Source: a bacterium (GTDB lineage: Bacteria > Patescibacteriota > Minisyncoccia > Phycocordibacterales > UBA1550). From it: a stretch of DNA of 64,000 bases. The notes under the pieces were generated by a model, which was not told the DNA's origin, ran no database searches, and saw only the letters and a program-made list of their open reading frames with translations. The position numbers were made by a program, and so were the translations under genes. The stretch is from NCBI GenBank assembly GCA_030649835.1, contig JAUSES010000060.1, forward strand, positions 6,411 through 70,410. The letters are read 5' to 3'. This document shows positions 6,312 to 54,891 of this stretch, piece after piece (the first letter of the stretch is position 1; each line of letters starts with the position of its first letter).

Positions 6312-6386
6312 TCCGCGGTAGCTCAGTGGTAGAGCAAGCGACTGTTAATCGCTTGGTCGTAGGTTCGATCCCTACCCGCGGAGCCA
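6312..6386 (+). tRNA. tRNA-Asn (anticodon GTT).
   Basis: Manual cloverleaf: acceptor tccgcgg/ccgcgga; D-arm gctc-agtggta-gagc; anticodon stem agcga/tcgct with loop cuGUUaa; T-arm gtagg-ttcgatc-cctac; discriminator G; encoded CCA. Confidence 0.9.
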
Positions 6387-8129
6387 GTTAGGACGAGAGA
6401 GCTCGAAAGGGCTCTTTTGTCGTTTAAGGGCAACGCTATTTCTAGGTTCGAGCGCATCAATAAGTGCTTTTTGCTCTCTCATCTCATTTTCTATCAGTAA
6501 ATATGGATGAAGCTTATCAATAGTGAGTATTTTGTCCTTCAAAATTAGGTTCGAGCCAATCGTAGAAAATATCTCTCTTTTCTTTCGAAGATCCGGTTTA
6601 TTAAATTGATCTCTTGCGAAAGTGCAGAAATTAAACACGCGCTCGGCAATTTCAAGATCACCGTCGAGCTTCTCTTTGGTTCCTCCCATTTGTTTTTCTA
6701 TTGCTGTCCTTTGAGCAATAATCTCTTTTTTCTGCTCTTTGAATTCCTCAGGCGTGTATATTTCGTATTTTGAATTCAGTGGTGAGGAAAATTCTCTACT
6801 TATATTCACGAGCCGTGTCTGACAATCATCGTAAGAGGACTGCAAGGACATGCGAACCGCTTTTTCTTCCCCGCCAGAGTTCTTTTGTTTGTCTTGCAAA
6901 TATTCAAGCGCAAGCTCAAGATATTCTCGATCAATCGTAATATCCCCAAGAATCTTGTCGAACTGTGATTCAAGGTCTTCGAGCTTAATGTATTTTTGAG
7001 AACAGTTTTTATTCTTTTTCTTTGTGCAATGATAATACACATAGTTCAAAACCTTCGGGCTCTCCATGTCTGAAATATCAATCGCACATTTAGGGCACGC
7101 GGTACGATTCACATTAGAAAATTTATACTTGCATGCTGAGCAAATTATCTGATTCTTTTCTTCGGCGGTAATAGTAGAATCACACTCACCGCAACGCATA
7201 AGCCCCGTGAAAGCAAACTCTCGCGTTTGTGGTTGAGGCTTTCCATTTTTCCCAAGAAGAACTTGCGCTCTTTTATATTCTTTTTCTGTAATCATCGCCG
7301 GGTGATTCCCTTTAACCATCTTTACTTCACCCGTATCCGGGTCCGTCCATGGATAATAGCCATAGTAGAAAGTATCCTTAAAAATATTATACATATGGCT
7401 CATTGTCGGCGGATTACCTCCAATTTTTCTATGTTTTAAGGTTGTTAGACCCCATTCGGTAATTGCTATCTCGCGTATTTTTGAAACAGAATAAGTGCCC
7501 GTGAGGAATAGGTCCCACATTTTACGAACGAGCTCAAAACGCTCCGGATCTAGTGCAATAGTTTTATTTCCTTTTTCTGTACCTACATTCAAGTAACCTA
7601 TCGGGCCACCTGAGGGTCTCCATCCACGCATAGCTTTGCTATTTAATCCACGCTTCACATTCTTAGACAAGCGCATCACATAGTCAGTAGCACGCCCTCC
7701 TTCGATACTCATGAGCAATCCAGCATCTTCAGGATAGTAAGAGCGCCCGGGGGTCTTTATGACCTTAATGACTCCCTTCTGAAGCATCCACTGCAACCGT
7801 CCGTTGTCTATGGGGTTTCGAGAAAGACGGTCAATATCCCAACATAAAAGAGCGTTCGCTTCTCCTTTTTCAATTCTGTTTAACACATCATTGAAAATCG
7901 GTCGCCCTGGATCCTTCGCACTTTTTTCTTCAGTGAACGGGTCTCTCGCCAAGCTCAACTGCTCACGCTCTGCAACCTGCTTAAGCGCATTAGTTTGATC
8001 GCCAATAGAAGCAACTTGACGCTGAGAATCCTCAGAGCTCTTGCGACAGTATGCGAAGTACTTTAGCTTTTCATTTTTGTGCATAAAATAATCTACTTGT
8101 ACTATCCATTGTATCATCTTCGTAGCCAT
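6372..8129 (-). CDS. Large serine recombinase (resolvase domain, recombinase domain and zinc ribbon; phage-type integrase). The likely true start is an internal Met near 8084.
   Basis: 'YFAYCRKSSEDSQRQ' is the catalytic Ser motif of serine recombinases. A Cys cluster 'CGECD...CSAC..C' matches a zinc-ribbon insertion domain. The 3' end overlaps tRNA-Asn by 15 nt. Confidence 0.85.
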   Translation of the reverse strand: MATKMIQWIVQVDYFMHKNEKLKYFAYCRKSSEDSQRQVASIGDQTNALKQVAEREQLSLARDPFTEEKSAKDPGRPIFNDVLNRIEKGEANALLCWDIDRLSRNPIDNGRLQWMLQKGVIKVIKTPGRSYYPEDAGLLMSIEGGRATDYVMRLSKNVKRGLNSKAMRGWRPSGGPIGYLNVGTEKGNKTIALDPERFELVRKMWDLFLTGTYSVSKIREIAITEWGLTTLKHRKIGGNPPTMSHMYNIFKDTFYYGYYPWTDPDTGEVKMVKGNHPAMITEKEYKRAQVLLGKNGKPQPQTREFAFTGLMRCGECDSTITAEEKNQIICSACKYKFSNVNRTACPKCAIDISDMESPKVLNYVYYHCTKKKNKNCSQKYIKLEDLESQFDKILGDITIDREYLELALEYLQDKQKNSGGEEKAVRMSLQSSYDDCQTRLVNISREFSSPLNSKYEIYTPEEFKEQKKEIIAQRTAIEKQMGGTKEKLDGDLEIAERVFNFCTFARDQFNKPDLRKKREIFSTIGSNLILKDKILTIDKLHPYLLIENEMREQKALIDALEPRNSVALKRQKSPFELSRPNWLRG

Positions 8130-8364
8130 AAAGCATTGGTCTCAAATTTTGAGTTTCGCACTTTCTTACCAATCTTTTTACACTCATTAATTCCCTGAAT
8201 CTTTCTTTTCCAAATTCACCATGTTGCGCTTTTAACAACTGTTTAACAGATTTTTCACCTTCTTCACCCAAATATAATATTCTACATATTGCACATTCTA
8301 TTATTCCACTTTCATTAACTTTAGGATCATGAGTATGTTTGTCCCCTTCGCAATTTTTGACCAT
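8071..8364 (-). CDS. Hypothetical protein on the island.
   Basis: 97-aa ORF immediately upstream of the recombinase. I recognise no domain. Confidence 0.3.
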   Translation of the reverse strand: MVKNCEGDKHTHDPKVNESGIIECAICRILYLGEEGEKSVKQLLKAQHGEFGKERFRELMSVKRLVRKCETQNLRPMLYGYEDDTMDSTSRLFYAQK

Positions 8365-8542
8365 ATAAAGGTCAATGTCTTCGATTGAATTAATTGCCTT
8401 GATTATATTATTTTCATATGATTCGTACCTATTTTCTTGGTAATTTTCTTAATTAGTAATATACACTTGCCGAGTTACCGCCTTATAGCCAAGAAGACAC
8501 AAAGCTTACTCAGCAAAACGGCAACACATTTATTAACTGCTA

Positions 8543-8935
8543 CTAAAATGGTTCATCTTCATTTATCACTAAGGATTCCTGTGGCTCTTTGGGCATAAAG
8601 CAGAAGTTTTCTTTCCCATGTTTCGCTGTATCAATTTTCCCTTCATTAACTAGTTCCCTGAGAGCGACTTGAACATTCTTTGACCCAGCTACTTTCTTTA
8701 GTATTTCAGTCATTTCTCTCTTGGTTTTTCCGCCATCAGGAAGAATCTCAAGTATTCTCTCTTTTGCTTCCTCTTTTTTGTTTTCTTGGTCCTCAATTGC
8801 TCCACCATAACTAAGAATCGTTTGAACCCCATCGGACCCTTCCTGGTCTTTTATAATCGCCTTGAAGGGGTCTATTTCCTTCGTAAGGCGATTCTTTCGC
8901 TGGTATATGTCTATCTTCTTCTCCTCCTGGCTCAC
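8543..8935 (-). CDS. Hypothetical protein with a probable winged-helix. It may be the C-terminal part of the RepA-like protein after a frameshift.
   Basis: 'TKREMTEILKKVAGSKNVQVALRELVNEGKI' looks like a wHTH. It overlaps the upstream AAA_25 ORF by 125 nt in another frame. Confidence 0.4.
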   Translation of the reverse strand: MSQEEKKIDIYQRKNRLTKEIDPFKAIIKDQEGSDGVQTILSYGGAIEDQENKKEEAKERILEILPDGGKTKREMTEILKKVAGSKNVQVALRELVNEGKIDTAKHGKENFCFMPKEPQESLVINEDEPF

Positions 8936-9647
8936 TCTTCAGCATAAGCAATATTTCCACTGAGGCGGTTTTATCAGTTGAGCCAAACAAAAATTCCTTC
9001 TTTGGAACCTTGCCCTCGAAATTGCTTGGCTTGCGGAAGTGGTCCAAGAATACAACAGCGACACCTTTATCTTTGAGGACTTTGAGGCGGTTGAAGAAAG
9101 TTCTAATTTCATCTGCTTTTTCCTCCTTAATTCCACCCGACACTGCCCTAAAAGTATCTAGAAAAACAACTTTTATTTCGTAATACTCAATAACATTTAG
9201 AAGCCACTGCACCCCTTCGTTCGTATTGAGATTTAATTCTGTATCACTGTAAACTAAAATCTTTTTATTGCTCTCGTCAAAGCCTAGCTGTCTTCCTCTG
9301 CGCTGTGCCTCACTCTGAGACATTTCCATGTCAACATACAGAACATTGGACGCTTCGGTTTTGAACTCCTCGCGTCCAAGAAAATCAATTCCAAGGGCAA
9401 TACATCTAGCCATATCCATCGCAAGCCAGGTTTTCTTTTCTCCTGTAACAGAGGCTAGGATGACAAAACCTTCGCAAGGGATTAGGCCCTGAACCAACCA
9501 CCTTCTCTCTGGGAATTTTTTATTTCCTAGAGTTGTCCAGCTCATCGGCTCAAAGAACGGCTTCTCAATCTCTCTATCAATCTCCCTCATTTCTGAGCTT
9601 TCATTCCTTTCCTCCGCAAACTCCTTAAATGTTTTCTCTTCGTTCAT
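8811..9647 (-). CDS. RecA-like ATPase of the AAA_25 / RepA-like family, a probable mobile-element replication or mobilisation protein.
   Basis: 'GFVILASVTGEKKTWLAMDMARCIALG' is a P-loop of the RepA/AAA_25 type. 'VVFLDTFR' and 'VVFLDHFRK' are Walker B-like strands. Confidence 0.7.
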   Translation of the reverse strand: MNEEKTFKEFAEERNESSEMREIDREIEKPFFEPMSWTTLGNKKFPERRWLVQGLIPCEGFVILASVTGEKKTWLAMDMARCIALGIDFLGREEFKTEASNVLYVDMEMSQSEAQRRGRQLGFDESNKKILVYSDTELNLNTNEGVQWLLNVIEYYEIKVVFLDTFRAVSGGIKEEKADEIRTFFNRLKVLKDKGVAVVFLDHFRKPSNFEGKVPKKEFLFGSTDKTASVEILLMLKSEPGGEEDRHIPAKESPYEGNRPLQGDYKRPGRVRWGSNDS

Positions 9648-9870
9648 AACTTTTAGGCAATGTTATTTTATTAATATCAAGACTGCTTGTCACCGCCCCA
9701 ATAAGGCAAACAAGATTTTCGAAATACTCAAAAGCTTGTGCATCAGAGATGACCGTTTTGTTCTTAGCTTCGTAAAGCTCCTTGAATTTTTTGAGATAAG
9801 TATTTTTATCAACCATAAAATAAAACCCACTATTGAGGACCTGACTTCGCCTAGAAAGTCGGGACCTCAA
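9625..9870 (-). CDS. Hypothetical small protein.
   Basis: 81-aa ORF that heads the minus-strand island operon. Confidence 0.3.
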   Translation of the reverse strand: MRSRLSRRSQVLNSGFYFMVDKNTYLKKFKELYEAKNKTVISDAQAFEYFENLVCLIGAVTSSLDINKITLPKSYERRENI

Positions 9871-9892
9871 TAGTGGGTTCCTCTAGGCGAGC
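9835..9892 (-). terminator. Imperfect 22-bp hairpin followed by a U-tract (minus sense), a probable terminator after ORF 9981..10733.
   Basis: aacccactattgaggacctgac...gtcgggacctcaatagtgggtt is an inverted repeat. It is followed on the minus strand by 'tttattttat'. Confidence 0.5.
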
Positions 9893-9980
9893 GGATATAA
9901 AATATCCTGTGTCTAGCATAAAGAAACCCGTGTTTTTTCAACACGGGTCATGGATGGGTTTATTGTGGGTTACAGATGGG

Positions 9981-10733
9981 TTATTCTACAATTATCCTGA
10001 AACCAACTTTTTCAATATTGTGAAATATATCGGTGTTAACAGCACAGCCTTCAGGTAATATCTGCAAGTCTTCTTTAATTGTTTTAATTATTTGTCCTAT
10101 ATCAGAATATTCTGTTTTATTCAGCGGGAAGCCGAGCGCGTTGCAAAGGTCTTTATAGCTAGCTTGCTTTTCATTGGCATTCAATAATGTTTTCAACACA
10201 TTAAATTTTTGTTGATCTGCTTTAAAATTTACTTTTACTTTTCCAAGAGTTGTATCTCCAGTAATTGTATTGAAGGTAAGTTTATTTTTTCTACCAAGTG
10301 TAATTATACTTGGGTTGACGATTGTGGTTTTAGGTAGTTTCTTATTGAATACGTCGTCACCAGCCTCTTTCAAGAGGTTTAGGTGCTTGCTTGTTTCTGT
10401 GCGAATATTTTTTAGCAGGGTCTGAGATTCCTCACTTTGAATATTGCTGTATTCAATTCCTCCCTTTAAATTAGGAACGCTGTCTGCTTCGTAAAACTTA
10501 TAAAATTCGATATTATCCCTTTTTGCCATAGTGAGGAAATCTTTTATATCTGACTTCCAAATTTGATATCTAGAAAAAACTTCATCAAGTATATTTTTCT
10601 CTGCATATATAGCATCTCCTTCTTGGGCTTGGCGAGTAATATTTATACCCTCCAATATCAAGTCAGAAAATACTCTTTTGAGTTTACTAGGCGCCATGAT
10701 TGTAAATCCTACTCTTTTTTGACATAATGGCAA
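9981..10733 (-). CDS. Hypothetical protein on the island.
   Basis: Clean 250-aa ORF. I recognise no domain. Confidence 0.5.
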   Translation of the reverse strand: MPLCQKRVGFTIMAPSKLKRVFSDLILEGINITRQAQEGDAIYAEKNILDEVFSRYQIWKSDIKDFLTMAKRDNIEFYKFYEADSVPNLKGGIEYSNIQSEESQTLLKNIRTETSKHLNLLKEAGDDVFNKKLPKTTIVNPSIITLGRKNKLTFNTITGDTTLGKVKVNFKADQQKFNVLKTLLNANEKQASYKDLCNALGFPLNKTEYSDIGQIIKTIKEDLQILPEGCAVNTDIFHNIEKVGFRIIVE

Positions 10734-10939
10734 TACAACTGAATAGCAGTCGGCCTAACCCTTAGGAGTTTAAATGCTTAAGGTATGGTTGCGCAAATCC
10801 CATGGAAGGTACTGAACCCCGCGTTCAGCGACTCTTCCATGGGTCATATCGGGAAACTGGTATGTGGACGCAAGTCCTAGCTGGCGCGGGGTTCTGTGTT
10901 TATACCCCACGCTAGCTATATTATTGGCTAGCTATTTTT

Positions 10940-11206
10940 ATGAAAATTAACTCATCTTTATTAATATCAGGAATAACATTAATTATAGGTTTAACATTTA
11001 GTAAAACCGATCTTTTTTTACCTATTTCAGTATTAATTGCAAGTATCATTGGCCTCATTACTAGACAATGGGTTACATCAGACAGACTTGGAAGGGCTAC
11101 TAGGTTGAGCATCTTACTTAAATTCTTTTTATCTCTTATTGGTTTTTATGCAATGATAGGTCAACTCGTATGTATTTGGCTATTAGTAAGGTGGTTTATT
11201 CTATAA
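10940..11206 (+). CDS. Small membrane protein (3 TM helices).
   Basis: Hydrophobic 88-aa ORF. It is the first in a plus-strand run of small ORFs. Confidence 0.4.
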   Translation: MKINSSLLISGITLIIGLTFSKTDLFLPISVLIASIIGLITRQWVTSDRLGRATRLSILLKFFLSLIGFYAMIGQLVCIWLLVRWFIL

Positions 11207-11514
11207 AACATGAAAATATGTCCCAAATAATTACATATAGACACGACAGAGAATATGGATACTGTCATATAAAACTCGACTCTGGAGAAAGAATTCTGTT
11301 ATCAGAGGCGAGTGACTATATAAAAATCTTCAAATTACTTTTTGGTATCATTCCAATAAAAACAATTTGGAAATGGCATAGAACAAACGATCCAAAAGAA
11401 ACCGTACTTAAAATTATGGACAATCATCAAGATACTAGTTTCTTTGATTCATTTGTAAAAGAAATACAAAAATATCGCTCAACCGATGAGATTAAAAATA
11501 AATTCGGTAAATAA
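11170..11514 (+). CDS. Hypothetical protein. The probable start is the Met at 11218.
   Basis: Soluble ORF of 98-114 aa. I recognise no domain. Confidence 0.4.
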   Translation: MYLAISKVVYSIKHENMSQIITYRHDREYGYCHIKLDSGERILLSEASDYIKIFKLLFGIIPIKTIWKWHRTNDPKETVLKIMDNHQDTSFFDSFVKEIQKYRSTDEIKNKFGK

Positions 11515-11523
11515 AATAAATTT

Positions 11524-11835
11524 ATGGACAAAAATTATCAGAAATATTTATCGATAACAGCGGGAATAATGCTCCTCTTGGCTATCCCAGCAATCTGGCC
11601 TTATGGATATTTTCAGATTCTAAGGTGGATTGTTGCTGGAGTGGCCGTGTATAACGCATATTTCGCATACGAACTAAAGAAAAATGAATGGGTGCTTATT
11701 ATGATTGCCGTAGCAATACTATTTAACCCGATAGCTCCAATTTTTCTCCAAAAAGAAACTTGGGTAATTCTAGACCTGGTTGCCTCTGTTTTAATGTTTG
11801 TCTCAATTATAAAATTAAAAACTAAAAAATCATGA
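11524..11835 (+). CDS. Small membrane protein (3 TM helices).
   Basis: Hydrophobic 103-aa ORF. Its end overlaps the next ORF by 4 nt (ATGA). Confidence 0.5.
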   Translation: MDKNYQKYLSITAGIMLLLAIPAIWPYGYFQILRWIVAGVAVYNAYFAYELKKNEWVLIMIAVAILFNPIAPIFLQKETWVILDLVASVLMFVSIIKLKTKKS

Positions 11836-12365
11836 TAGAAAAAATTAAAAACATAGGGTGGACTGGGGCTGGCTTGCTCTTTATTCTATTGGTATTTATT
11901 CTAATAGGCTTTTTGGTGGTGGGAGGAGTTGGTTTTATTGAGAATCATCAAAACCTGATAGAATCAGTAAATAATGTAACTGCGGGTATTTTCGTATTAT
12001 TACTTCTTTTTTCTGTAATACCAAAATTACGAATTTTCACTGGAACTGGGATTGTATTTTTAACATACATCTGGATATTTTTGCTATGGTTAACTTGCTT
12101 AGTTATAACTTACGAATTCTGGGGCCTTATAGGAATCTTTATCGGTGTAATAATGTTTGGTGTGGGTTTATTTATTACCGCCCCTCTTGCTTTACTTTTT
12201 TCAGGCCAAGGGTTTGGCGCACTTCTGTTGCTTCTCTCTATTGGGCTTACTTACCTAATAAGAAATTTGGGGATCTGGATTGTCAGCAAGTATCCAGAGG
12301 CAGGTGTCTCTACTGAGATAAACACAAGCGACATAAATGAAGTAAATGATAAATTTGATAAATAA
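11832..12365 (+). CDS. Membrane protein (4-5 TM helices).
   Basis: 177 aa, very hydrophobic, with an acidic C-terminal tail. Confidence 0.5.
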   Translation: MIEKIKNIGWTGAGLLFILLVFILIGFLVVGGVGFIENHQNLIESVNNVTAGIFVLLLLFSVIPKLRIFTGTGIVFLTYIWIFLLWLTCLVITYEFWGLIGIFIGVIMFGVGLFITAPLALLFSGQGFGALLLLLSIGLTYLIRNLGIWIVSKYPEAGVSTEINTSDINEVNDKFDK

Positions 12366-12389
12366 ATTTTTTATAAAAACATTATTAAT

Positions 12390-12761
12390 ATGAGAATTTG
12401 TATCAAATGCAAAAAAAGAGAAGGTTCTTGGTGGGACCATTTGTGTCAGTATTGTCGCAAGATACCAGTATCTAAACCAGAAGCTCTTGCCTATGAAAAA
12501 TTAAATGAATCTAAAGATATTTTGAGTCAAGATAGGATTGAATATACCGTCAATCTAGAAAAAGCAACTAGTAGTTATTCCTCGAAGTTTGTTAATTTAA
12601 GTAAGGAACTTATTGAGAAGCTAGTAGGATTTTTGTTTCTTGTATTGTTTATGTTTTTAATTTATTTTGTAGCTAGTTGGTTTAAATTTGATACAAATAA
12701 TAATGCTGAAAATTACGAGCCATGCAAAACTTCTGGACACCAACTTTGGCAAGATTGCTGA
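12390..12761 (+). CDS. Zinc-ribbon protein with a C-terminal TM helix.
   Basis: The N-terminus 'CIKCKKREGSWWDHLCQYC' is a CxxC...CxxC motif. A hydrophobic segment follows at 'FLFLVLFMFLIYFVASWF'. Confidence 0.5.
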   Translation: MRICIKCKKREGSWWDHLCQYCRKIPVSKPEALAYEKLNESKDILSQDRIEYTVNLEKATSSYSSKFVNLSKELIEKLVGFLFLVLFMFLIYFVASWFKFDTNNNAENYEPCKTSGHQLWQDC

Positions 12762-12787
12762 TGTAAAAATGAGATATAATTACAAAT

Positions 12788-13069
12788 ATGAATGAAAAAG
12801 AAATATTAAAACTTAATGACGAAGTGCTAAAGATGAACAGTCTTGACTTCGCTAACTTTTTAGAAAAGAAAACGAAAACATACCAAGATGTTGAGCAGAC
12901 AGTATCTCAGGGTGGGGATGTTGCGTTTAAAACTATTCTTGCATTAAAGTATAAGGTATTTATTTTGGAAAACTCCAAGAAGAAACTGATTGTATATTCC
13001 TTCTTACTAACTATAATCATAGTACCTTTAATTATCCAAAGTCTTTCTTTTGTACTTCCAGAAATGTAA
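12788..13069 (+). CDS. Small protein with a C-terminal TM helix.
   Basis: 93-aa ORF. Confidence 0.4.
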   Translation: MNEKEILKLNDEVLKMNSLDFANFLEKKTKTYQDVEQTVSQGGDVAFKTILALKYKVFILENSKKKLIVYSFLLTIIIVPLIIQSLSFVLPEM

Positions 13070-13079
13070 AAATAAATGA

Positions 13080-13277
13080 TTGAGGTATCTTAAAGAAAAT
13101 CAAAATACTATGAAAAAATTAATAGGTCTTATCTCAACAAAAGGCAAGACCTCTGAGCAAGCAAGCAAGGAGGTTACGGACGCTTTCCACAAGTTCAACA
13201 AGATACAAAAGCAGGTTGAAATTGAAATGCGAGAGGAGGAGCTGTCACTCACACCCCAGCACGAGTGTCAGAAATGA
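13080..13277 (+). CDS. Small charged/coiled-coil protein.
   Basis: 65-aa ORF. Confidence 0.3.
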   Translation: MRYLKENQNTMKKLIGLISTKGKTSEQASKEVTDAFHKFNKIQKQVEIEMREEELSLTPQHECQK

Positions 13278-13301
13278 AAATAACAGCGGTAATATAAAAA
13301 T

Positions 13302-14063
13302 ATGCTTGGCGCAATTATTGGTGATTTTGTGGGGTCATACTATGAGTTTAACGCGGTCAAAACAAAAGACTTCGACCTTTTCCCCGTGGGCTCGAAATTT
13401 ACCGACGATACTATTCTTACCCTCGCTACAGCACACGCTATTCTAAATAAAGAAGATTACGGTAAATCTTACAAAAACTTTTTTTGGCAATACCCACTTA
13501 AAAACTACGGCGAGCGATTTTACGCATGGGGCAAAAGAGACGACTCTGAGCCATACAATAGTTTTGGTAACGGGTCTGCGATGAGGGTAGCTCCTGTCGG
13601 GTGGGCTTTCAATATCATTGAGCAGGTTCTTGAGGAGGCAAAGAAGAGCGCTGAAGTGACCCATAATCACCCAGAGGGGATAAAAGGCGCTCAAGCCGTA
13701 GCAAGCGCAATATTCCTCGCAAGAACTGGGGCAAGCAAAAAAACAATCAAGGAATACATAGAATTAAATTTTGAGTACGACCTAGATCGTTCCGTGGATG
13801 AGATACGGGAAACGGCCGTCTTTAACGAGACGTGTATGATAAGCGTTCCCGAGGCGATTATTTGTTTCCTTGATTCTGAATCATTTGAAGATGCCCTACG
13901 AAATGCAGTTTCTCTTGGGGCAGATGCTGACACCCAGGCATGCATCGCCGGAGCAATAGCAGAAGCATTTTACAAAGAGATACCGGATTTTATACGAGAG
14001 GAGGTATTGAAGCGCTTACCTAAGAAATTCCATGGGATGATTGATGAAATACTCACTGCATAA
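13302..14063 (+). CDS. ADP-ribosylglycohydrolase family protein (DraG/ARH-like).
   Basis: N-terminal 'GAIIGDFVGSYYEF', mid 'GNGSAMRVAPVG' and C-terminal 'GADADTQACIAGAIAEAF' match the binuclear-Mg ARH signature. Confidence 0.85.
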   Translation: MLGAIIGDFVGSYYEFNAVKTKDFDLFPVGSKFTDDTILTLATAHAILNKEDYGKSYKNFFWQYPLKNYGERFYAWGKRDDSEPYNSFGNGSAMRVAPVGWAFNIIEQVLEEAKKSAEVTHNHPEGIKGAQAVASAIFLARTGASKKTIKEYIELNFEYDLDRSVDEIRETAVFNETCMISVPEAIICFLDSESFEDALRNAVSLGADADTQACIAGAIAEAFYKEIPDFIREEVLKRLPKKFHGMIDEILTA

Positions 14064-14167
14064 GAAACGCTTCCAAATATCTCCCGTTTCCATGTGCTGA
14101 TTCTGCGCGATCAACCAGAATTCTGTAATTTTTTATTTCCATTTTTTAAATATAAATATGATGTACC

Positions 14168-16561
14168 CTACAGGCGAACTTGCTCTTGTACGTCTAGTTG
14201 AATCAGTTCTTGGAATTCATTCAATGTAATTACTTCCTCTCTAAAATTATCTGAATCAGATAAATCTCTTACCGTTAAAATAAAGGCGTAGGGTTGATTT
14301 TCTAAGTTTTCTTTTCCAAGAATTTTACTTTCATAAGATTGTGTTGCAGACAACTGTAAAAGTACCTCTAGCACAGTAGATGGTACTTTTTTCTTTATTT
14401 TTTTAAAATGAATCACATTGTGATTTGGGTTCCTGTAATGGTCCCATGTTGGAGTCTGGTTTAGAGACAGTGCTTTATTTTTTTCTTCAACCTCACCATT
14501 TTCATCAAGGATTGGGACCAAGAACCGAACTGCTGGTTCAACACTCATCATCTTATATTCTTTTGGGTAATTTTTATCAACGGGAGGGTTATAAGCAAGA
14601 GTGAATATAAACTCTACCTTTTTACCCAAGATACTTTCTGGGAGCTGTATTTGTAATTTGTGTTTCCTCTCAACGTAATTAATCTTATCTGCATACATTA
14701 ATGTTAGTTCATTTTCATTATCCTTTAAAGCAAGCTTGTGGTCGGGGACTCCAAAACCATATGCTCGTTTTATATGGTCATCCTCGATTTTTACTTGTGG
14801 AGCTTTTGCGGTTGAATGAATCAAAAGTGCCTTAACGAGATTAAGTTTATTGTTCTCTAAATCAACATAATCTGATGCTTTCGCTTTCTTTATAAAATCT
14901 AACAAAAACGCACATTATCTAGTGATTAAAGGCGCACTTAGGCTAGTGCCAATGTCTTTGTTGAGGCCATCCTTATTTATGCTCTCAACGCCAAAAACCT
15001 GATTTGAGGATATCATGTGAGCATTTCCATAACCAAAGCTTGGGTCTTTTTTTACATTACCTCCATTAGCAACCAATTCTGGTTTCTTAATATCTTTAGC
15101 GACACTGGAAGTACGCGTAAAAGGGGCTGGGAACCCTTGCTCAACATTTACACAACTAGCGTCAGCCTTACCCGAAATTGAGCCAACTGAAATTACATTA
15201 AGAGCATCACTTGGTGATGCAATAAGAGATTTTTCTTGTTTAAAAATAGTATTGTAATTTTCACTAGCGTAAACTTGATGGTTACCGACAGAACAAACAA
15301 ATATCACATCGTACTCCCTAGCTATATTATCCAAGAATTCGGTCAATTCACTCACGTCGTCTTTGTCTATCGGTTCATTTTCATTAATAGAGAGATTATA
15401 TATTGAAATATCTTCATACCTATTTACAACCTCAGAAATTGCACCCTTTAGTTCATCAAGGGAGACGCATTTTGAATCACTACCATCCAAATACAATACT
15501 TGTATGTCTAGAATATTACATGTTGGAGCAATAGAACCACCCCCTGTTAATTGCATAAAGAAGTTGTCACCAAACAAAATTCGGCTGGCCACAATAGTAC
15601 CGTGGTTCTTGTCCTCGACCTGATGTCGAGACAAATAATTATGGTGATGAGCCCTAAGCTGTTGGAGTATTGGATTATATATACCACTATCAATGAGACC
15701 CACTCTTTCTGCTGTTAGTGGAGCAAGGAGATTCAGTGCCCCAAGATTAATCTCTGGGATACACCTCTGTGAACTCAAAATTGGTTGCTCTCTTATTTTG
15801 CCGATAAAATTAAAATCTGCATCACTTAAAATACCAATAATTTCATTTGCTGTAAGGGTCGCCAAGAATGATATGTTACTAAAAAATAAGTTTATATTTC
15901 TCTTTTTCAATTTTCCACGAAAAACAAGTTGATCGTTCAAAGAATCAAAGAGTGTGTCGTATTTATCTTTGCCAATATTTGGGTAAATCTCAATAATGCA
16001 ATCAATTGTTTGATTTAAAATATTGCCATGAATAAGTGAGTAGATATAATTACTTACCCGGCCCTCAATGATTGTATTACGGTCTGTGACTGCCGACATG
16101 GCATACAATTCACGCAACAGATTCTTGTCTTTTTTTCTTGGTAAATCCTCCCCTGTGAGGGCAGCATCAAATGAGCCGCTATTGCTTATACTAACCAAAC
16201 GGTCAAAATCCTCTATTTTCCCACTAACGATAAATGTTTTGTCGTTTTTAGAACCAACAATTTCAAGCCCCGTCTCATTCCACACATCAGCAGGACTGTT
16301 AGATTTTGAGTTTGCCAGCTCATCTAATTCGACTTCGACATACAGTAATTTCCCGGCAGTTTTTGCTTCCGATTTTATTTTTTTAACAGTTGTATCAATC
16401 TGCCTTACGCGCTTTGAAAACACTCTGGCGTAATGTTCGCGGGTATCATCAGTAATTTTCTTTTCCCAAAACGACTTCCAAAAATCAGAACCTCCTCCAG
16501 GCTTTTTACCTTTATTTATCTTCTTTTTGGGTACAACAATTGAAAAGTTCATATATTTCAT
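14168..16561 (-). pseudogene. ietS: Subtilase (peptidase S8), IetS-like. It is split into ORFs 14915..16561 and 14168..14905 by a single in-frame TAA at 14915..14917.
   Basis: The Asp motif 'VGLIDSGI', the His motif 'NHGTIVASR' and the Ser motif 'GTSLSAPLITR*' are present. The downstream ORF is in the same frame and continues with a subtilase-like C-terminus ('LVKALLIHS', 'AYGFGVPD'). Confidence 0.6.
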
Positions 16562-17661
16562 TTTATATTGTCACGAAGCGTAGTGTACGCAATACCAGAA
16601 ACTTCAGATATGTCAATTAAATTGAAACTGCTATCTTTTAACACTTGCGCAATTTCATAAAGATTCTTTTTGTTAAGCCTCTGTTTTGATGTTAATTGGT
16701 GATTAAAAGAAATAATATGTTTTAAGCAAAAAATATTATCTAAGCTTATACCCTCTATTACCGATGCTCTTTTTATGTTTTGGCATATATCATTAATTAA
16801 AGAACCATTTAAACCAACAGTGACTCTTGCCATTAAATTATAGTCTAATGATTTATTTTTATTAAAATCACTTAAAAACAACTCAAACAATAGAGCCCTC
16901 GATTCCTCTTCTGGGGTATTAATTTCTAACCTTAGCCCGAATCGTCTCCATAGTGCCTTGTCCAACAACTCATCATGATTTGTTGCTCCAATTAGAATTG
17001 AAGTCACTGGGAATAAGTCAATATTTTGAAGTAACACAGTAACTACTCTCTTTAATTCCCCCAACTCCCTTGCATCATCTCGATGTTTAGCTACTGTATC
17101 AATTTCGTCAAAAAAGATGACTACTCGCTCCCTTTTTGCAATTTCAAAAACCTCGCTAATGTTTTTCCCTGTTTTACCTAAATACGATGAGACTAGTTCA
17201 TCTAATTTGACAATAATAAGTGGGAGGTTCAATTTATTCGCAAGAGCATAAGCTAATCTTGTTTTCCCTGTACCAGGTGGTCCATAGAAAAGAATTTTGT
17301 TTATAGGGGAAATATTATTTTTAAGTAACTTATCAAAAGCTTCCCAATGCTTTATAAACTCAATTATGGTTGTCCTTGTATTTGGATTAAGGACAACAGA
17401 ATCTAATTCGATGTTTGAGTAAATTTTTTCAAAAAGAGTATCGTTATTGTTTAGATTTATATTCCTAGAAGTTAACGACTGCCCAGATAAGGAATGCCCC
17501 CTAGACACATCTTTAATCAGATTTGACAATCTTTTGGCAACTAATATTTTTCCGTTAGCTCTTTGTTTTTTTATCTCCTTTTCTAGGACAGAAACAACCT
17601 CCTCGTTTTTACCTGAGGAAAAAGCCTTTACGATATCTTCTACGATATTTATAGTTGCCAT
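16558..17661 (-). CDS. ietA: AAA+ ATPase, IetA-like partner of the subtilase.
   Basis: Walker A 'GPPGTGKT', Walker B 'VIFFDEIDTV' and the classic AAA sensor region are present. Its stop overlaps the start of the S8 gene (ATGA). Confidence 0.8.
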   Translation of the reverse strand: MATINIVEDIVKAFSSGKNEEVVSVLEKEIKKQRANGKILVAKRLSNLIKDVSRGHSLSGQSLTSRNINLNNNDTLFEKIYSNIELDSVVLNPNTRTTIIEFIKHWEAFDKLLKNNISPINKILFYGPPGTGKTRLAYALANKLNLPLIIVKLDELVSSYLGKTGKNISEVFEIAKRERVVIFFDEIDTVAKHRDDARELGELKRVVTVLLQNIDLFPVTSILIGATNHDELLDKALWRRFGLRLEINTPEEESRALLFELFLSDFNKNKSLDYNLMARVTVGLNGSLINDICQNIKRASVIEGISLDNIFCLKHIISFNHQLTSKQRLNKKNLYEIAQVLKDSSFNLIDISEVSGIAYTTLRDNIK

Positions 17662-18041
17662 AAAATCCGTAATTTAAAAAAACCAACTAAATTAATACTC
17701 TTATTGTATCATATTACGAAAATTAATGTAAACCATATTTTCGTAATTATATTTGTACCCCCCTGATGAGCACTCCAAAGAATAGCTAAAAAATATAAAT
17801 GAGTTTTTGAGAATTAATTTTCCCCAAGAGCCTGGGGGTATGGGTATCCCCCCAGGCTCAAAATGGCTCTATGTTCACACAAACTACCCAACGCCGTATT
17901 TTCCATCACACGGGGGCCTACGTCGAGGGGTATGCACACCGCCCCTGCCCTATTGCACTGAGAGATTGGGAACATAAAAATCATCAGATCGAGTGGCTAT
18001 CCAAGTTCTAATAGCCTCGACTGTTCGGAGCAAATTAAAAC

Positions 18042-18066
18042 CCCTCGAAAGAGGGTGTTTTTATTT
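18042..18066 (+). terminator. Short GC hairpin plus T-tract (cccctc-gaaa-gagggtg-ttttt).
   Basis: Stem-loop followed by 'tgtttttatttg' inside the long noncoding tract. Confidence 0.4.
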
Positions 18067-18089
18067 GCTCCGCGGAGTAAAGCGAAGCT

Positions 18090-18460
18090 TTACGGTAGGG
18101 ATCGAACAGCGGAGCGATATTTTGTTAGCAAACAAAATCGCGAGCTGGTGCCCAGACAGAACTTTTTGACGAAAAAGTTTTAGTCGAGGGAGATATCCCT
18201 ATCCGCCCGGTAAGATCGAAGACCTTGAGTATATTTATGATGATGTACTCATCTGAAGAAATACAAAGGTGTACCGTTCCTGTAAGGAAAGATACCCCTA
18301 CCCTTAGGGATCGAACCGAAGACCCACCATTTTGGGAATGAGAGTATTCTCGAAGACCTACAAAATGGATGGTCTCGATCGCATGGAAGGGCGATCATGC
18401 ATACAATCAGCACAGCGACCTGGTAAATCGTGACCACTCCCTACTAGCAGAGTCAGTAAG
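18090..18460. repeat. Array of at least three related structured elements (about 110-150 nt each). Each is framed by 'gtagggatcgaa' ... 'ccctac(ccgc)' and contains paired hairpins.
   Basis: Similar cores occur at 18097, 18209 and 18303. 3' motifs 'gata[ct]ccctaccc' occur at about 18200, 18290 and 18447. Internal stems include 'aactttttg/caaaaagtt' and 'gacccaccattttg/caaaatggatggtc'. Confidence 0.45.
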
Positions 18461-18531: not shown

Positions 18532-19704
18532 ATGAGAAACATTATTTTAGGAATTACGGCCATTGTCATATTTATCGTAGGTTCTCTTGCGATTAGCCAT
18601 CCTTTTTTAAAAGATTCTGAAAATTATCTAGCTGTTATAGAAAAAAATGTTCAAGAGCAAATCACCAATGACGAGAGTCAAGGCGTGTATGAAAACAAAA
18701 CCGTAAAAAAGTGTGAGAACCCTGTGTTCACTTCGTATTTTATTGATCCGCAATATGTACAAAAAGTTGGACAAGTTGGTGTCGTCCATGGTTCCGGCTT
18801 ATACATAGTAGAAAGGTCATATATAAGTGTAAAGGAAAAATTTGCCGCGCAGAAAGTACCAGTATACGCTCCTTCTGACATTGAGCTCGTTGCAGGTAGT
18901 CATTATCGTGATCCTGCTGCTCCAAGTAATGCCCTACCCGATTATGCCCTGTGGTTTGACGCGGGATGTGATGTAGAAGTAAATCTAGCACACCTCAAAG
19001 AAGTTGCTCAACCGATTGCTTTACAATTACCAGATGTAAAAACAGACAGCAGGAATACACGACTAAAGCCTTTGCAATTTAAAGCTGGGGATCTCATAGG
19101 ATATTTTATTTATAGTCATGGGGATGTTGCAGGATTTGATTTTATCGTCAGAGACAAAAAGGTGTTAAATAAATTTATCAATCAAGAAAGATATTCCGAC
19201 CATAGAGCATCAAATCTTATCAATGGCGTTTGTCCTTATGATTATTATGAACCTAACAAGAAAAAAACATATTATAATTTGCTAGGCGGAGCCGGAGGAA
19301 CACTCTTCAAAACTAAAGACTGCGGAAAATCATCAAGAGATGTTGCTGGCACCATTTCGGGGATGTGGTTTTTGAGTCAAGAACCGCAGAATAACATCTA
19401 CGAAAGCTACAAGGAAGGACTGTATGGCAGTACTTTGTCTATAGTAGGAGACGAGGAAAGGATCACTATAGGTAACTTGGGAGAAAGTCGTATGTCTTGG
19501 ATATATAACAACAACCCCACCTACAAACTACCCGAACAGGTAAAGAGCGAGCACTGCTATAAGTTTGATGGGTTCACTCCAGGAGATAATAGGGGCTGGG
19601 TTTACTTTAAGTTCGTTTCAGATACACAGCTTGATGTCTTTTTTTCTCAAACAGGAACTTGCCCATACTCACTTCCGCCAAACGCCAAACGATATTATAA
19701 ATAG
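18532..19704 (+). CDS. Secreted or membrane-anchored hypothetical protein.
   Basis: It has an N-terminal TM/signal 'ILGITAIVIFIVGSLAI'. The ORF is 390 aa with no recognised domain. Confidence 0.6.
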   Translation: MRNIILGITAIVIFIVGSLAISHPFLKDSENYLAVIEKNVQEQITNDESQGVYENKTVKKCENPVFTSYFIDPQYVQKVGQVGVVHGSGLYIVERSYISVKEKFAAQKVPVYAPSDIELVAGSHYRDPAAPSNALPDYALWFDAGCDVEVNLAHLKEVAQPIALQLPDVKTDSRNTRLKPLQFKAGDLIGYFIYSHGDVAGFDFIVRDKKVLNKFINQERYSDHRASNLINGVCPYDYYEPNKKKTYYNLLGGAGGTLFKTKDCGKSSRDVAGTISGMWFLSQEPQNNIYESYKEGLYGSTLSIVGDEERITIGNLGESRMSWIYNNNPTYKLPEQVKSEHCYKFDGFTPGDNRGWVYFKFVSDTQLDVFFSQTGTCPYSLPPNAKRYYK

Positions 19705-19746
19705 ACCCTTTTAATGTAGTAAACAATGAGTGGAGCATAAAAGTAA

Positions 19747-19776
19747 GACCGTCCCCCTCGTGGACGGTTTTTACTT
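19747..19776 (+). terminator. Intrinsic terminator (gaccgtcc...ggacggt + TTTTT).
   Basis: Hairpin plus T-tract about 45 nt after the stop of ORF 18532..19704. Confidence 0.6.
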
Positions 19777-19786
19777 TTGTCATGCT

Positions 19787-19912
19787 TCCGCGCGTGTAGG
19801 GATCGAAGGGATTTTCGGTTTACGCTCGTAGCAACGAGTGCCGAAAATCCCCGTTTTCAATTTCAGTGAGTGGCGACGAACTGAAATTGAAAAAGATACC
19901 CCTACCCGCAAA
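19787..19912. repeat. Fourth copy of the structured element family: an outer 'gtaggg/ccctac' stem enclosing two hairpins. It is a possible small RNA or tRNA-derived repeat.
   Basis: tgtagggatcgaa | gggattttcgg..ccgaaaatccc | ttcaatttcag..ctgaaattgaa | gatacccctacccgc. It is homologous in layout to 18097..18205. Confidence 0.4.
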
Positions 19913-21424: not shown

Positions 21425-21617
21425 GGTAAAATGAATATATGAATCCCGTTAGAGGTCCCCGCCCACTTTCGCCAGAACACAGCAAAAAGTTGTGCTCAAG
21501 TGATGGCGGGTGGGACTCAGTTTTTTAACCTGAGCCTACGGGAGTCTATATAAAAAGTTTATTTATTTACTAGATAATAATCAGCTACGGAAACGCCTAG
21601 CGTTTCCTACCTCTAAC
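21425..21617. repeat. MITE-like element, copy B, inverted relative to copy A. It abuts the start codon of the first M14 peptidase gene.
   Basis: Terminal inverted repeats 'atcccgttagaggt' (21443) and 'acctctaacgggat' (21603). The internal 85 nt are the exact RC of 6040..6127. 'tttcctacctctaacgggATGAAAAA' precedes this gene and also precedes pyk. Confidence 0.6.
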
Positions 21618-21620
21618 GGG

Positions 21621-22517
21621 ATGAAAAAAATAATTATTGCATTGGTTGTTATTGTTCTTATCGGCCTCGGTGTTTGGTTTTTTATGAATAAGAGTGCGGA
21701 GGCTCCGACTCCGGTAGTGACTGCTCCGACAACGACCACGACTGCTACAGTGGTGACAGAGGAGCCTGTTGACACCACAAGGACAGTTCTTGGAACGTCT
21801 GTTGAAAATCGCGACATCACCGCGTACCACTACGGCACCGGCGCAAAAGAAGTTTTGTTTGTTGGAGGAATTCACGGCGGTTACGAATGGAACACTGCGC
21901 TCGTGGCATATGAGCTCATGGACTACCTCACGGCAAATCCTAAGGTTATTCCAAGCAACGTAAGAGTGACTGTCATCCCCGTGCTCAACCCAGACGGTTT
22001 GAAAAAAGTTACAGGAAAAGAAGGGCGTTTTACAAAAGCTGATATCGCTACATCAGAGTCTGTCGTTGTATCTGGTCGCTTTAATGCAAGCGGTGTTGAC
22101 CTCAACCGCAACTTTGATTGTGATTGGCAGACAAAGGCAGTGTGGATGAACAAACCCGTAAGTGGCGGAAGCAAAGTATTTTCAGAACCTGAAAGTATGG
22201 CAATTAAAAACTACATAGAAACTCACAGCCCCGTAGCTACTGTCGTATGGTACAGCTCTGCAGGCGGTGTATTCTCTTCAAACTGTCACAACGGAATCCT
22301 TCCTGAAACAAAAACTCTTACAAATCTTTTTGCAAAAGCATCTGGGTACAAAGCCTACGAGACGTTTGATTTCTATGAGACTACCGGCGACATGGTAAAC
22401 TGGCTTGCAAAAAAGAACGTTCCTGCAATCAGCATTCTTCTCACCACCCACGACGATACGGAGTGGAGCAAAAACCTCGCAGGGATTAAAGCGACACTAA
22501 ACCACTACGCAAAGTAA
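21621..22517 (+). CDS. M14-family zinc carboxypeptidase (gamma-D-Glu-DAP / murein peptide carboxypeptidase-like), membrane-anchored.
   Basis: It has an N-terminal TM helix. 'FVGGIHGGYEWNTA', 'DLNRNFDCDW' and 'SEPES' are M14 zinc-binding and catalytic motifs. Confidence 0.85.
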   Translation: MKKIIIALVVIVLIGLGVWFFMNKSAEAPTPVVTAPTTTTTATVVTEEPVDTTRTVLGTSVENRDITAYHYGTGAKEVLFVGGIHGGYEWNTALVAYELMDYLTANPKVIPSNVRVTVIPVLNPDGLKKVTGKEGRFTKADIATSESVVVSGRFNASGVDLNRNFDCDWQTKAVWMNKPVSGGSKVFSEPESMAIKNYIETHSPVATVVWYSSAGGVFSSNCHNGILPETKTLTNLFAKASGYKAYETFDFYETTGDMVNWLAKKNVPAISILLTTHDDTEWSKNLAGIKATLNHYAK

Positions 22518-23408
22518 ATGAAGTTTCTTGTTTCTAAACAAGCGCTCATAATCATCAGTATTCTTGTTCTTGTTGGACTTGGGTTTTTGTTATCACTATC
22601 TCTAAAAGGCAAACCCAGCGTTCCACAACCTTTGGAAGTGTCTCCTACCCCAACTCCCCTTGTCCTTCATAAAATAATTGGAAAATCCGTACAGGGGCGC
22701 ACGATAAATGCGTACGTCTACGGAAATGGAGCTACACACCTCTTGTTTGTAGGTGGCATTCACGGCGGATACGAGTGGAACAGCGTACTTTTGGCCTATG
22801 AGGCGATGGACTATCTGAAAAAAAATCCTGACGCTGTGCCAAAAAAAATCACTGTGGCAATAATCCCCTCTGCAAATCCTGATGGACTTTTTAAGGTTGT
22901 TCAAAAAGAGGGACGCTTCTCTGTCGCGGATATTCCGACTACAAAACTGATTGAAGGTACGGGGCGTTTCAATGCGCACAATGTTGACCTCAATCGTAAT
23001 TTTGATTGCAACTGGAAACCAAAAAGCACATGGAAAAATAACGTGGTCAGTGCAGGTACAAGTGCTTTTTCTGAACCTGAAGCGCAAGCCATTAGAGATT
23101 TTGTTTTTGACTTCTCTCCCGATGCAGTGGTCTTTTGGCACAGCAAAGCAAATGCCGTATATGCGTCAGAGTGTAACAACGGTGTCCTCCCAAAAACACT
23201 AGACATCATGAATACATACGCAGGTGCATCAGGATACACTCCAATAAAGTCATTTGATGCGTACAAAGTCTCTGGTGACGCTGAAGGATGGCTTGCTTCA
23301 ATAAATATTTCTGCTATAACCGTTGAGCTAAGTACTCACGAGACGGTTGAATTGGCGCAAAACATACGCGGGATGCGAGCTCTAATTGAAAGTTATACTC
23401 ACCAATAA
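22518..23408 (+). CDS. M14-family zinc carboxypeptidase, a tandem paralog.
   Basis: 'FVGGIHGGYEWNSV', 'DLNRNFDCNW' and 'SEPEAQAI' match the upstream gene. Its start overlaps the upstream stop (TAAATG). Confidence 0.85.
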   Translation: MKFLVSKQALIIISILVLVGLGFLLSLSLKGKPSVPQPLEVSPTPTPLVLHKIIGKSVQGRTINAYVYGNGATHLLFVGGIHGGYEWNSVLLAYEAMDYLKKNPDAVPKKITVAIIPSANPDGLFKVVQKEGRFSVADIPTTKLIEGTGRFNAHNVDLNRNFDCNWKPKSTWKNNVVSAGTSAFSEPEAQAIRDFVFDFSPDAVVFWHSKANAVYASECNNGVLPKTLDIMNTYAGASGYTPIKSFDAYKVSGDAEGWLASINISAITVELSTHETVELAQNIRGMRALIESYTHQ

Positions 23409-53700: not shown

Positions 53701-54173
53701 GCCGTCACATCCCACGGGTTCCCCGTAGCAATAACTCCTCTAAACGCGATGATCTGTGCAAACTGATGGTCTCCCGAGTCGGAAGTGGTTGGTGCGCCTT
53801 GTGTGCCATTGTACCTACTCCAAAATACGGTGAGTCGCGTTGCCCCTGCAATACCCGCAGTACCGGTGCCTTGTGGTGAATTCGTTACCTGCGCCCACAC
53901 ACCTCCGTTTGGTGTTGGGATGGTGATGGCCTGATTTGCGGTCTCAACAAAAAGAAGCAGGATGTCGTCCACCGCGAGCCCTGCTGGAAGAGGTGGTGTA
54001 ACTGCGGTTATTGCAGAGGCTTTTGCCCCCGCCGCAACGAGGGTGGGGGTAGCAGCATGTGCGTTGTTTATTTCAAAAAATGATGTTACTCCGGAAAAAC
54101 CAAAAAATAAGGCAACAGCAAAGACTGTAAAAATCCTAGAAAGCGTATTGAAAATAGTTCTCTTTTTTTTCAT
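50757..54173 (-). CDS. Very large secreted Thr/Gly/Ser-rich beta-repeat protein with a C-terminal FN3-like domain, a candidate pilus-associated adhesin.
   Basis: 1138 aa with a signal peptide. The composition is T/G/S/N-rich. 'TTYSYRVRSMDAAGNET' is FN3-like. Confidence 0.55.
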   Translation of the reverse strand: MKKKRTIFNTLSRIFTVFAVALFFGFSGVTSFFEINNAHAATPTLVAAGAKASAITAVTPPLPAGLAVDDILLLFVETANQAITIPTPNGGVWAQVTNSPQGTGTAGIAGATRLTVFWSRYNGTQGAPTTSDSGDHQFAQIIAFRGVIATGNPWDVTAGDILATASTAVTIPGVTTTSTETLVVAVVANDTDVNNTPQTSGWANGGLSSLTEVLNADANTNAGRGGGFGVAVGPRLTTGATGNSTATLLNSSIQARMTIALKPPLTLAIGATSGNKVASLNSGSTAQYANDVTCNSPASCSAFTLVSSAGETLTSTKITETGTTNATNNLSNLAVFYDTDGNFANGVTGQYGTTVASLTSEAATVSGSLALVAGTTYYFYVRADMINGASDPKGGETINFQIALPADVVTSALSAKSGAPVSLAGTTTVKPKITSYTNSTEPALDYSNCAGTGCGARIGGGVGFKQSVVITGFGFGVRTCGTGNCSTISDNIKIGTHQITDANVITWSSTSITFQTDTLNVGDTDTDWGSEFGGVGALAVTAGGAASGGLDFYIFPQVISLTMCNKAEFPVGDGGREHDGTDSVCLNGLKDGQVRLNGTRFGTAVTGGYVRILGCDVTTCASPTGTVNVDSWGNELIQVQVPPVIDDTINTGSLIMKQGLGSNNKMHSYTMTNFRVFPRIISPPSASVGDPITITGNHLCQGGTCPLAFGIIDNVIVFNSYATSTVWGIGGWTDTAVNTQVPTSAMSGNVVITSNIYKSNAVIFSLLSLVPDNPLNLTQRDASLATISIGGTASSTPVRYTLDTSSAITGGTMYSQVEVRPVLGTNRNFTSTCSANSYCFEGTGTAYGGGTINLLTTSTPPGDIYHWQARVRYNKSGSDYYSSWVSFDSASPETSTDFQIDTTAPPVTNISSGLPGSNSATITWDTTDEVSTSRIEYNIGGMFAGGYNCAGTTECTALTDVLPTRVNLHSIALSNLNSGTTYSYRVRSMDAAGNETVSGISTFLTATVNNPAKTTKFYVAGGTSPVTNASPGIYQFYATTTEANITAKSSFITLTGIYETTNVSPTNSSVTVQYESESPVTYVLPGGPSGTFRNYFKIIRKVNTVNTVTQNTFTVRPDAATTLYVNSASLVMTYSYTP

Positions 54174-54890: not shown

Positions 54891-54891
54891 G

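Follow-up and report, generated by a model that had tools for sequence, protein, structure and literature searches.

A premature in-frame TAA codon in the protease gene of an IetAS locus from a Candidatus Yonathbacteria-like bacterium

IetAS systems and the locus in the window

The first description of IetAS was that of a toxin-antitoxin pair which stabilises an Agrobacterium Ti plasmid; later it was recognised as an anti-phage defence system (both as summarised in PMC13069673). The serine protease IetS is the toxin and the ATPase IetA the antitoxin (PMC13069673; bioRxiv 10.1101/2021.01.21.427616). The same sources state that defence needs the protease activity, that ietA mutants cannot be constructed and that the mechanism is still unknown (PMC13069673; also bioRxiv 10.1101/2021.01.21.427616).

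Here we describe an IetAS locus within a stretch of bacterial DNA of 64,000 nucleotides that was analysed as a whole (the window). As in the known systems, ietA is positioned directly upstream of ietS on the same strand and the two genes overlap, i.e., the TGA of ietA and the ATG of ietS share the sequence ATGA at 16561. The features of the locus are:

16558..17661, minus strand: ietA, intact, coding for the IetA AAA+ ATPase of 367 aa (Pfam AAA, 7.5e-32; PADLOC PDLC02196, 1.1e-92)
17703..17732, minus strand: promoter-like site about 40 nt ahead of ietA, TTTACA-18-TACAAT preceded by a TG (consensus match only)
14918..16561, minus strand: 5' part of ietS, 548 codons from the ATG at 16561, with the N-terminal domain and the S8 core including D291, H320, N427 and S540
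14915..14917, minus strand: premature TAA at codon 549, in frame with ietS (TTA on the plus strand, next base T), aligned with a conserved Glu
14168..14914, minus strand: 3' remnant of ietS, 248 sense codons and a TAG, with S8 profile positions 248-288 and the C-terminal beta-sandwich domain

The minus strand from 16561 to 14168 translates as one frame of 798 codons, interrupted by a stop only once, at codon 549, and closed by TAG. The original prediction had listed two ORFs in the same frame, 14915..16561 and 14168..14905 on the minus strand, and the ORF list and the translation agree with it. Across the stop the minus-strand translation reads ...DIGTSLSAPLITR*CAFLLDFIKK..., also given as ...KDIGTSLSAPLITR*CAFLLDFIKK.... 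The stop follows 8 residues after the catalytic Ser540 (AGC, 14944..14942; GTSLSAPLITR*CAF), which the translation likewise bears out. The 248 downstream codons contain no additional stops and no frameshifts. Counted from the ATG at 16552, the start used by NCBI and by the homologues, the 5' part has 545 codons. The protein on record, P0001 (545 aa, NCBI 'MAG: S8 family peptidase [bacterium]'), is the window's own truncated product and 100% identical to it. The 3' remnant is annotated by NCBI as a separate hypothetical protein, Q7K40_04355, of 245 aa with a TTG start at 14905.

Profile matches treat the two parts as one gene. Pfam Peptidase_S8 (PF00082) matches the upstream ORF alone over profile positions 6-247 of 288; the downstream ORF alone has no Pfam match. 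When the stop is bridged with an X, the Peptidase_S8 match covers positions 6-288 of 288 in one stretch and scores 107.3 bits instead of 89.7. The PADLOC IetS model PDLC02197 matches the bridged product in one stretch as well (27-731 of 749, E 1.4e-75), a full-profile match which, with the X placed at the stop, holds at the level of DNA and frame only. D291, H320, the oxyanion N427 and S540 are invariant columns in the window copy and in 17 full-length homologues, all of which are colinear across the site. That an IetS-type subtilase is split by a single in-frame TAA, and that the downstream ORF with its LVKALLIHS and AYGFGVPD segments is the rest of the enzyme, thus rests on translation, on Pfam and PADLOC profiles and on homologue alignment. 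The IetA match is nearly full-length (residues 3-365 to positions 3-367 of 374 of PDLC02196), with GPPGTGKT as Walker A and VIFFDEID as Walker B motif. As for the promoter-like site ahead of ietA, such sites are no more numerous in this region than in shuffled sequence.

Because the bridged frame fits the IetS model and the gene directly upstream fits the IetA model, the locus is an IetA-IetS pair. A co-oriented ATPase-subtilase pair, the IetA profile with its Walker motifs, the IetS profile (bridged) and the catalytic residues, i.e., the D/H/S triad and the oxyanion Asn, are all present. The one element missing is an uninterrupted ietS frame, and the encoded protein ends at position 247 of 288 of the S8 profile. 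Since every sequence-level hallmark except the intact ietS frame is found, the locus is filed as pseudogenised IetAS. Judged by its sequence, it is an IetAS locus with a pseudogenised effector and, unlike the known systems, the module carries a nonsense codon and is predicted to be inactive.

The tRNA-Asn island and its host

A second difference concerns location. The Agrobacterium pair is plasmid-borne, whereas the module described here is found in a member of the CPR/Patescibacteria, on an island at a tRNA-Asn gene with a gene for a serine integrase. A Candidatus Yonathbacteria MAG has a pyruvate kinase 86% identical to that of the window, and the best matches of the window enzyme are all Patescibacteria/CPR from groundwater. 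To our knowledge, detailed descriptions of defence systems are scarce for this Candidatus Yonathbacteria-like CPR group. The features of the island are:

6385..18304, no strand assigned: integrated island of about 11.9 kb carrying IetAS (absent in relatives by synteny with L006-L018; span of a Logan contig; composition)
6312..6386, plus strand: tRNA-Asn (GTT), the probable integration target, overlapped at its 3' end by the terminal part of the integrase ORF
6372..8129, minus strand: large serine recombinase (integrase) of 585 aa (NCBIfam XisF/CcrB-like; phrog_95 integrase, 1.3e-57)

In the relatives the order is pyruvate kinase, then tRNA-Asn. In two of them, L007 and L018, the tRNA-Asn almost abuts a homologue of window positions 18305-18378, a conserved segment of 74 nt which in L007 is 96% identical. 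In the window the tRNA-Asn and this segment are 11.9 kb apart. The GC content is 32-38% over 9.5-17.5 kb versus 41.6% for the window. A contig from the Logan assembly (L085), on which the recombinase displays Resolvase/Recombinase/Zn_ribbon_recom domains, ends at window positions 6356 and 18189, close to the island borders. The interval further contains genes for an AAA_25 primase/helicase-like protein and a DUF6804 protein, a LOOT RNA and an ADP-ribosylglycohydrolase gene which is convergent with ietS. Since ietS is the last gene of the operon and the next gene is convergent, a polar effect of the stop is not expected.

A segment missing in relatives thus lies beside a tRNA gene with an integrase gene at its edge. 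A search for att repeats of the island found no direct repeat of the tRNA 3' end (attL/attR); it returned inverted tRNA-like fragments only, at 18305-18324 and 19791-19807. Integration by a serine integrase does not depend on long direct repeats. The two inverted fragments (18.3 and 19.8 kb) were also considered as tRNAs and rejected, the relaxed ARAGORN calls being low-threshold, intron-containing and not credible. Because the junction of tRNA-Asn and the 18305 segment seen in relatives is split by 11.9 kb, the GC content is low and the contig ends fall near the borders, IetAS is, on this comparative evidence, cargo of an island integrated into the genome of a Candidatus Yonathbacteria-like CPR bacterium.

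Relatives of ietS and the truncated product

A protein search among 5.8 billion proteins returned P0001 and 17 full-length relatives of 782-795 aa. They are 39-76% identical over the full-length alignment and not a single one is interrupted (0 of 17). In the column of the stop 13 have Glu, including the 10 closest, two have Gln, one Asp and one Ala. The DNA of two close relatives has GAA (L003) and GAG (L001) at this position. The same stop, sought in relatives as a check on the original prediction, is therefore peculiar to the window copy, and the prevalence of Glu supports a recent nonsense mutation. Given Glu (GAA/GAG) at the site, one G-to-T change suffices for a TAA; most likely, by these alignments, the stop arose from the change of GAA to TAA at Glu549.

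Six intact metagenomic orthologues (P0002-P0007, on Logan/ENA contigs; 786-794 aa, 64-76% identical) are colinear with the window ietS over the full length and, as in the window, are directly adjoined upstream by an IetA gene of 367-368 aa. They differ from the window copy in having Glu (GAA/GAG) instead of TAA, and their flanking genes are different. A serine recombinase gene is located near the IetAS of L003. Such differing neighbourhoods, one of them beside a serine recombinase gene, fit a mobile cassette.

How much damage has accumulated downstream of the stop? Retention of conserved columns was used as the measure of decay because synonymous sites are saturated at about 75% protein identity. 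Compared with its four closest relatives, the window copy shows 72-76% identity upstream of the stop and 74-78% downstream, no lower than intact genes show among themselves. The window copy has kept 67 of 68 columns invariant in all 17 homologues before the stop, and after the stop all 30. For columns conserved at the level of 15 of 17 the numbers are 116 of 117 and 52 of 52, respectively. In leave-one-out comparisons the intact homologues retain their columns to the same extent as the window copy. There is no sign of relaxed constraint downstream of the stop. The lesion is therefore either very recent or not real.

To examine the consequence for the protein, the orthologue P0002, which shares 76% identity with the fused window product, was modelled with AlphaFold2 (mean pLDDT 77.6, pTM 0.83). 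In this model the catalytic Ser537 starts a helix of 21 residues (536-556, pLDDT about 90), and Glu546, the equivalent of the stop, is located in the middle of it. A second core helix (569-583, the LVKALLIHS segment) follows and then a beta-sandwich domain (615-782). Missing from the truncated window product are ~41 positions at the end of the S8 fold and the entire C-terminal beta-sandwich, i.e., 31% of the protein. Because the break falls within a core helix and the C-terminal domain is gone, the model of the relative predicts that part of the S8 hydrophobic core is lost and that the protease is almost certainly inactive. By the same model, a two-piece enzyme split within a core helix appears implausible.

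A Foldseek search with the P0002 model retrieved subtilases with a C-terminal beta-jelly-roll at E-values of 4e-18 to 6e-11. A separate sequence search for a solved IetS structure found none; it gave generic subtilases only, with weak matches. Tk-SP (3afg), KP-43 (1wmd) and SubHal (5fax) share with IetS a similar fold of S8 core and C-terminal beta domain. Yet their sequence identity to IetS is 16-17%, and they are proteases secreted for degradation rather than effectors of toxin-antitoxin or defence systems. Unlike them, the IetS clade possesses an extra N-terminal domain of ~270 residues and a partner ATPase.

Explanations for the stop codon and their meaning

Most probably the stop is a genuine, very recent GAA-to-TAA nonsense mutation by which an IetAS module acquired horizontally has lost its active protease. 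The original prediction had left three options, a recent nonsense mutation, a sequencing or assembly error and regulated readthrough. The first is favoured by the evidence, the other two are not. An error of some kind has arguments on its side: the sequence comes from a MAG and from a single sample of origin, and the complete absence of downstream decay is also what one expects of an intact gene. The TAA might then be a sequencing or consensus artefact, a rare systematic read error or the assembled minority allele of a mixed population, and the real gene would be intact with GAA. However, the downstream ORF (P0022, identical with Q7K40_04355) is on record also from Logan, an independent assembly of public runs. 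The contig mentioned above, SRR13727527_547242 (L085; 11,834 nt), is 100% identical to window positions 6356..18189, TAA included, and has the same split into 548 aa and 245 aa. An exact look-up of the 545-aa NCBI protein gave no record; in Logan the gene is called as 548 aa, with the upstream ATG as its start. Because this assembly has the identical TAA, an assembler-specific error behind the stop is largely excluded: two different assemblers arrive at the same base, and their sequences agree perfectly over the surrounding 11.8 kb. The Logan contig is on record from one sample and both assemblies probably rest on the same reads; a second sample of the strain was not found in the collections searched. 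Consensus-level single-base substitution errors are rare in short-read assemblies. Moreover, ietS is the only window gene for which a break by an in-frame stop is shown; the one other same-frame pair that abuts directly consists of complete paralogues. An intact allele of the same species was not encountered: the 5.8 billion proteins hold no full-length variant of at least 90% identity, the collection of genome contigs gave no relatives and the best match in JGI metagenomes is 65%. Taken together, we regard an artefact as unlikely.

Bypass of the stop fares worse, and we rate it as very unlikely. It could take the form of programmed or leaky readthrough of the TAA, or of termination and reinitiation at the TTG at 14905, and would yield little full-length enzyme or an enzyme in two pieces, possibly as a throttle on a toxic protease. 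In its favour, the frame is perfectly kept after the stop and an in-frame TTG (14905) is available four codons downstream. No Shine-Dalgarno sequence precedes this TTG; because 31 of 40 window genes are likewise without one, its absence says little about translation of the downstream piece. Against bypass, TAA is the commonest stop in the window, where it ends 26 of 44 long ORFs, and the only tRNA encoded there is tRNA-Asn, not a suppressor. The base after the premature TAA is a T, and TAA-T is among the strongest termination contexts in E. coli. With no relative sharing the stop, conservation as a regulatory device is out of the question, and regulated readthrough, as originally contemplated, is without support. 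Natural N-only or C-only homologues were not found on contigs long enough to judge in the search of 5.8 billion proteins, including homologues that end naturally after the Ser motif; the short matches P0020, P0021 and P0023-P0026 were rejected as natural splits as they are truncated by their contigs (1.2-4.9 kb). The modelled break within a core helix, finally, makes assembly from two pieces structurally implausible. A general recoding of TAA was considered and rejected on similar grounds. Any likeness to stop reassignment or programmed readthrough, e.g., the recoding of TGA or TAG in some CPR lineages and phages, is superficial and limited to an in-frame stop within a conserved gene. Unlike in those systems, the codon is TAA, the main terminator, ietS is the only gene shown to be split rather than one of many conserved genes with the codon in frame, and the stop is conserved in none of the 17 orthologues. 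The window has six other same-frame pairs of long open stretches, and same-frame neighbours are expected by chance in about one third of adjacent pairs. The one pair tested, 21621..22517 and 22518..23408, joined by TAA-ATG, consists of two complete tandem M14 paralogues, 47% identical. Similarly improbable is a new role of the 548-aa product as a selected allele, e.g., with the N-terminal domain binding IetA as a non-toxic decoy or regulator. The N-terminal domain of ~270 residues and ietA are indeed intact, and the mutation hits the toxin, a change the cell can survive. Yet no N-terminal-only homologues were found on long contigs in the protein search, nothing sets the allele apart from an ordinary new pseudogene, and, according to the model, the truncated S8 core would probably misfold.

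The favoured explanation, a fresh nonsense mutation, would entail the following. A module of an AAA+ ATPase regulator/antitoxin and a subtilisin-like protease effector/toxin sits on an island integrated at tRNA-Asn and acquired recently. Evolutionarily very recently, Glu549 of ietS would have changed from GAA to TAA. Translation would now end 8 residues past the catalytic Ser, halfway along the core helix that this residue starts, and the defence/toxin function of the module would be lost while ietA stays intact. Given the roles of IetS as toxin and IetA as antitoxin, a nonsense mutation in ietS would be a survivable loss, whereas losing ietA first would be toxic. Inactivation of the toxin first may thus be the tolerated route of decay for a toxin-antitoxin-like module.

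One may ask whether the TAA is instead a selected off-state allele of a toxic IetAS island, the protease being turned off by one reversible point mutation or throttled to what rare readthrough or reinitiation at the TTG at 14905 would supply. This we consider extremely improbable. If true, a population of a minimal-genome CPR symbiont could regain its defence by reversion of TAA to GAA, and the allele would do by point mutation, in a defence system of the toxin-antitoxin type, what phase variation does elsewhere.

For annotation the consequences are practical. In the public MAG the two CDSs, 'S8 family peptidase' (545 aa) and Q7K40_04355 (245 aa), ought to become a single entry marked as an ietS pseudogene, and censuses of defence systems should not count the window IetAS as functional. 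Nonsense losses of this sort are common in defence islands. What we have here is an ordinary fresh loss-of-function allele of a known defence system and not a signal of recoding; it is illustrative, not surprising. Beyond the corrected annotation, its main value is that of a tidy example of toxin-first decay, a snapshot of what would be the first step in the decay of a toxin-antitoxin-like defence module, with the toxin hit, the antitoxin intact and no secondary damage.

Further cargo of the island and the neighbourhood of IetAS

Two start codons come into consideration for ietS, the subtilase gene of the IetAS pair. Beyond this pair the island holds an RNA element and a block of plus-strand genes:

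16561, minus strand: ATG, candidate start 1 of ietS, overlapped by the stop codon of the ATPase gene ietA (ATGA)
16552, minus strand: ATG, candidate start 2 of ietS, the choice of NCBI, which matches the MNFSIVVPKK start in all close homologues
10752-10878, plus strand: LOOT RNA (Rfam RF03000), matched over its full length with 73.4 bits (gathering cutoff 46.4; E 1.7e-12)
11170-13277, plus strand: five or six small ORFs of unassigned function, one of them DUF6804, upstream of the following gene
13302-14063, plus strand: gene for an ADP-ribosylglycohydrolase, matched by Pfam (4.4e-35) and by the phage family phrog_6572 (2.4e-56)

The LOOT RNA is positioned within the island with divergent gene blocks on either side. 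The ADP-ribosylglycohydrolase gene and ietS are convergent. A search with PADLOC yielded no match for the ADP-ribosylglycohydrolase gene. Its region could constitute a second toxin-antitoxin or defence module of the island, because the DarG-type antitoxin of a DarTG variant possesses the same ADP-ribosylglycohydrolase fold (PMC13069673).

In the closest relative, IetAS adjoins a divergent three-gene block (contig L001, 1242-3832) which encodes a Trypsin_2 protease, a protein of 154 aa and an ATPase of the AAA_15/AAA_21 type (SMC_N-like). The block resembles a further defence-like module that pairs a protease with an ATPase; this suggests a defence-island context.

Repeats and tRNA-like segments around the island

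The island region lies between the two copies of a perfect inverted repeat, which are 15.3 kb apart and part of wider intergenic elements. Segments with a tRNA-like T-arm are present at the island edge and beyond:

6048-6133 and 21439-21524: perfect 86-nt inverted repeat
5901-6129 and 21443-21622: intergenic elements of about 180-230 nt each, holding the repeat copies
18305-18378 (also 18066-18105): 74-nt non-coding segment, 96% identical to a segment in a Yonathbacteria relative (L007)
19732-19807: second, weaker copy of the 74-nt segment, likewise with a tRNA-like T-arm
21621-22517 and 22518-23408, plus strand: tandem M14 zinc-carboxypeptidase paralogues, 47% identical

Inverted 13-mers, CCTCTAACGGGAT, form the boundaries of both elements. 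The 13-mer has five matches, every one of them inside the two element regions, versus 0.03 expected. In both copies its terminal AT is included in the ATG of the flanking gene, i.e., pyruvate kinase (5902, minus strand) and an M14 peptidase (21621, plus strand). Folding of the 86-mer gives a hairpin of -34.4 kcal/mol (z -2.95). Since relatives have no counterpart of positions 5903-6167, the elements could plausibly represent either a duplicated leader or a mobile element of the MITE-like type. The M14 paralogues share a common frame with a direct TAA-ATG junction; they resemble a split gene, but each of the two is complete.

The minus strand of 18305-18378 carries the tRNA-like T-arm GGTTCGATCCCTA, and its counterpart in L007 adjoins tRNA-Asn. 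Neither this segment nor 19732-19807 was called a tRNA by ARAGORN or Rfam. The two are contiguous in relatives and are separated here by a 390-aa ORF (18532..19704) without a family match. Possible identities are remnants of att sites, tRNAs that are degenerate or carry an intron, and a conserved RNA of unknown kind.

Coding signals and the pilus cluster

Among 44 long ORFs in the window, 26 end with TAA, 16 with TAG and two with TGA; ietA, on the island, is one of the latter. The presence of long uninterrupted ORFs argues against TGA as a sense codon in the window, though the bias against TGA stops is strong. A recognisable Shine-Dalgarno sequence precedes only 9 of 40 genes. The 1138-aa ORF at 50757..54173 has no NCBIfam match. 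Close to it is the following cluster:

54222-58977, minus strand: type IV pilus/type II secretion-like cluster, comprising a PilB/GspE ATPase gene (57259..58977) and its neighbours

Such a cluster fits the CPR lifestyle.
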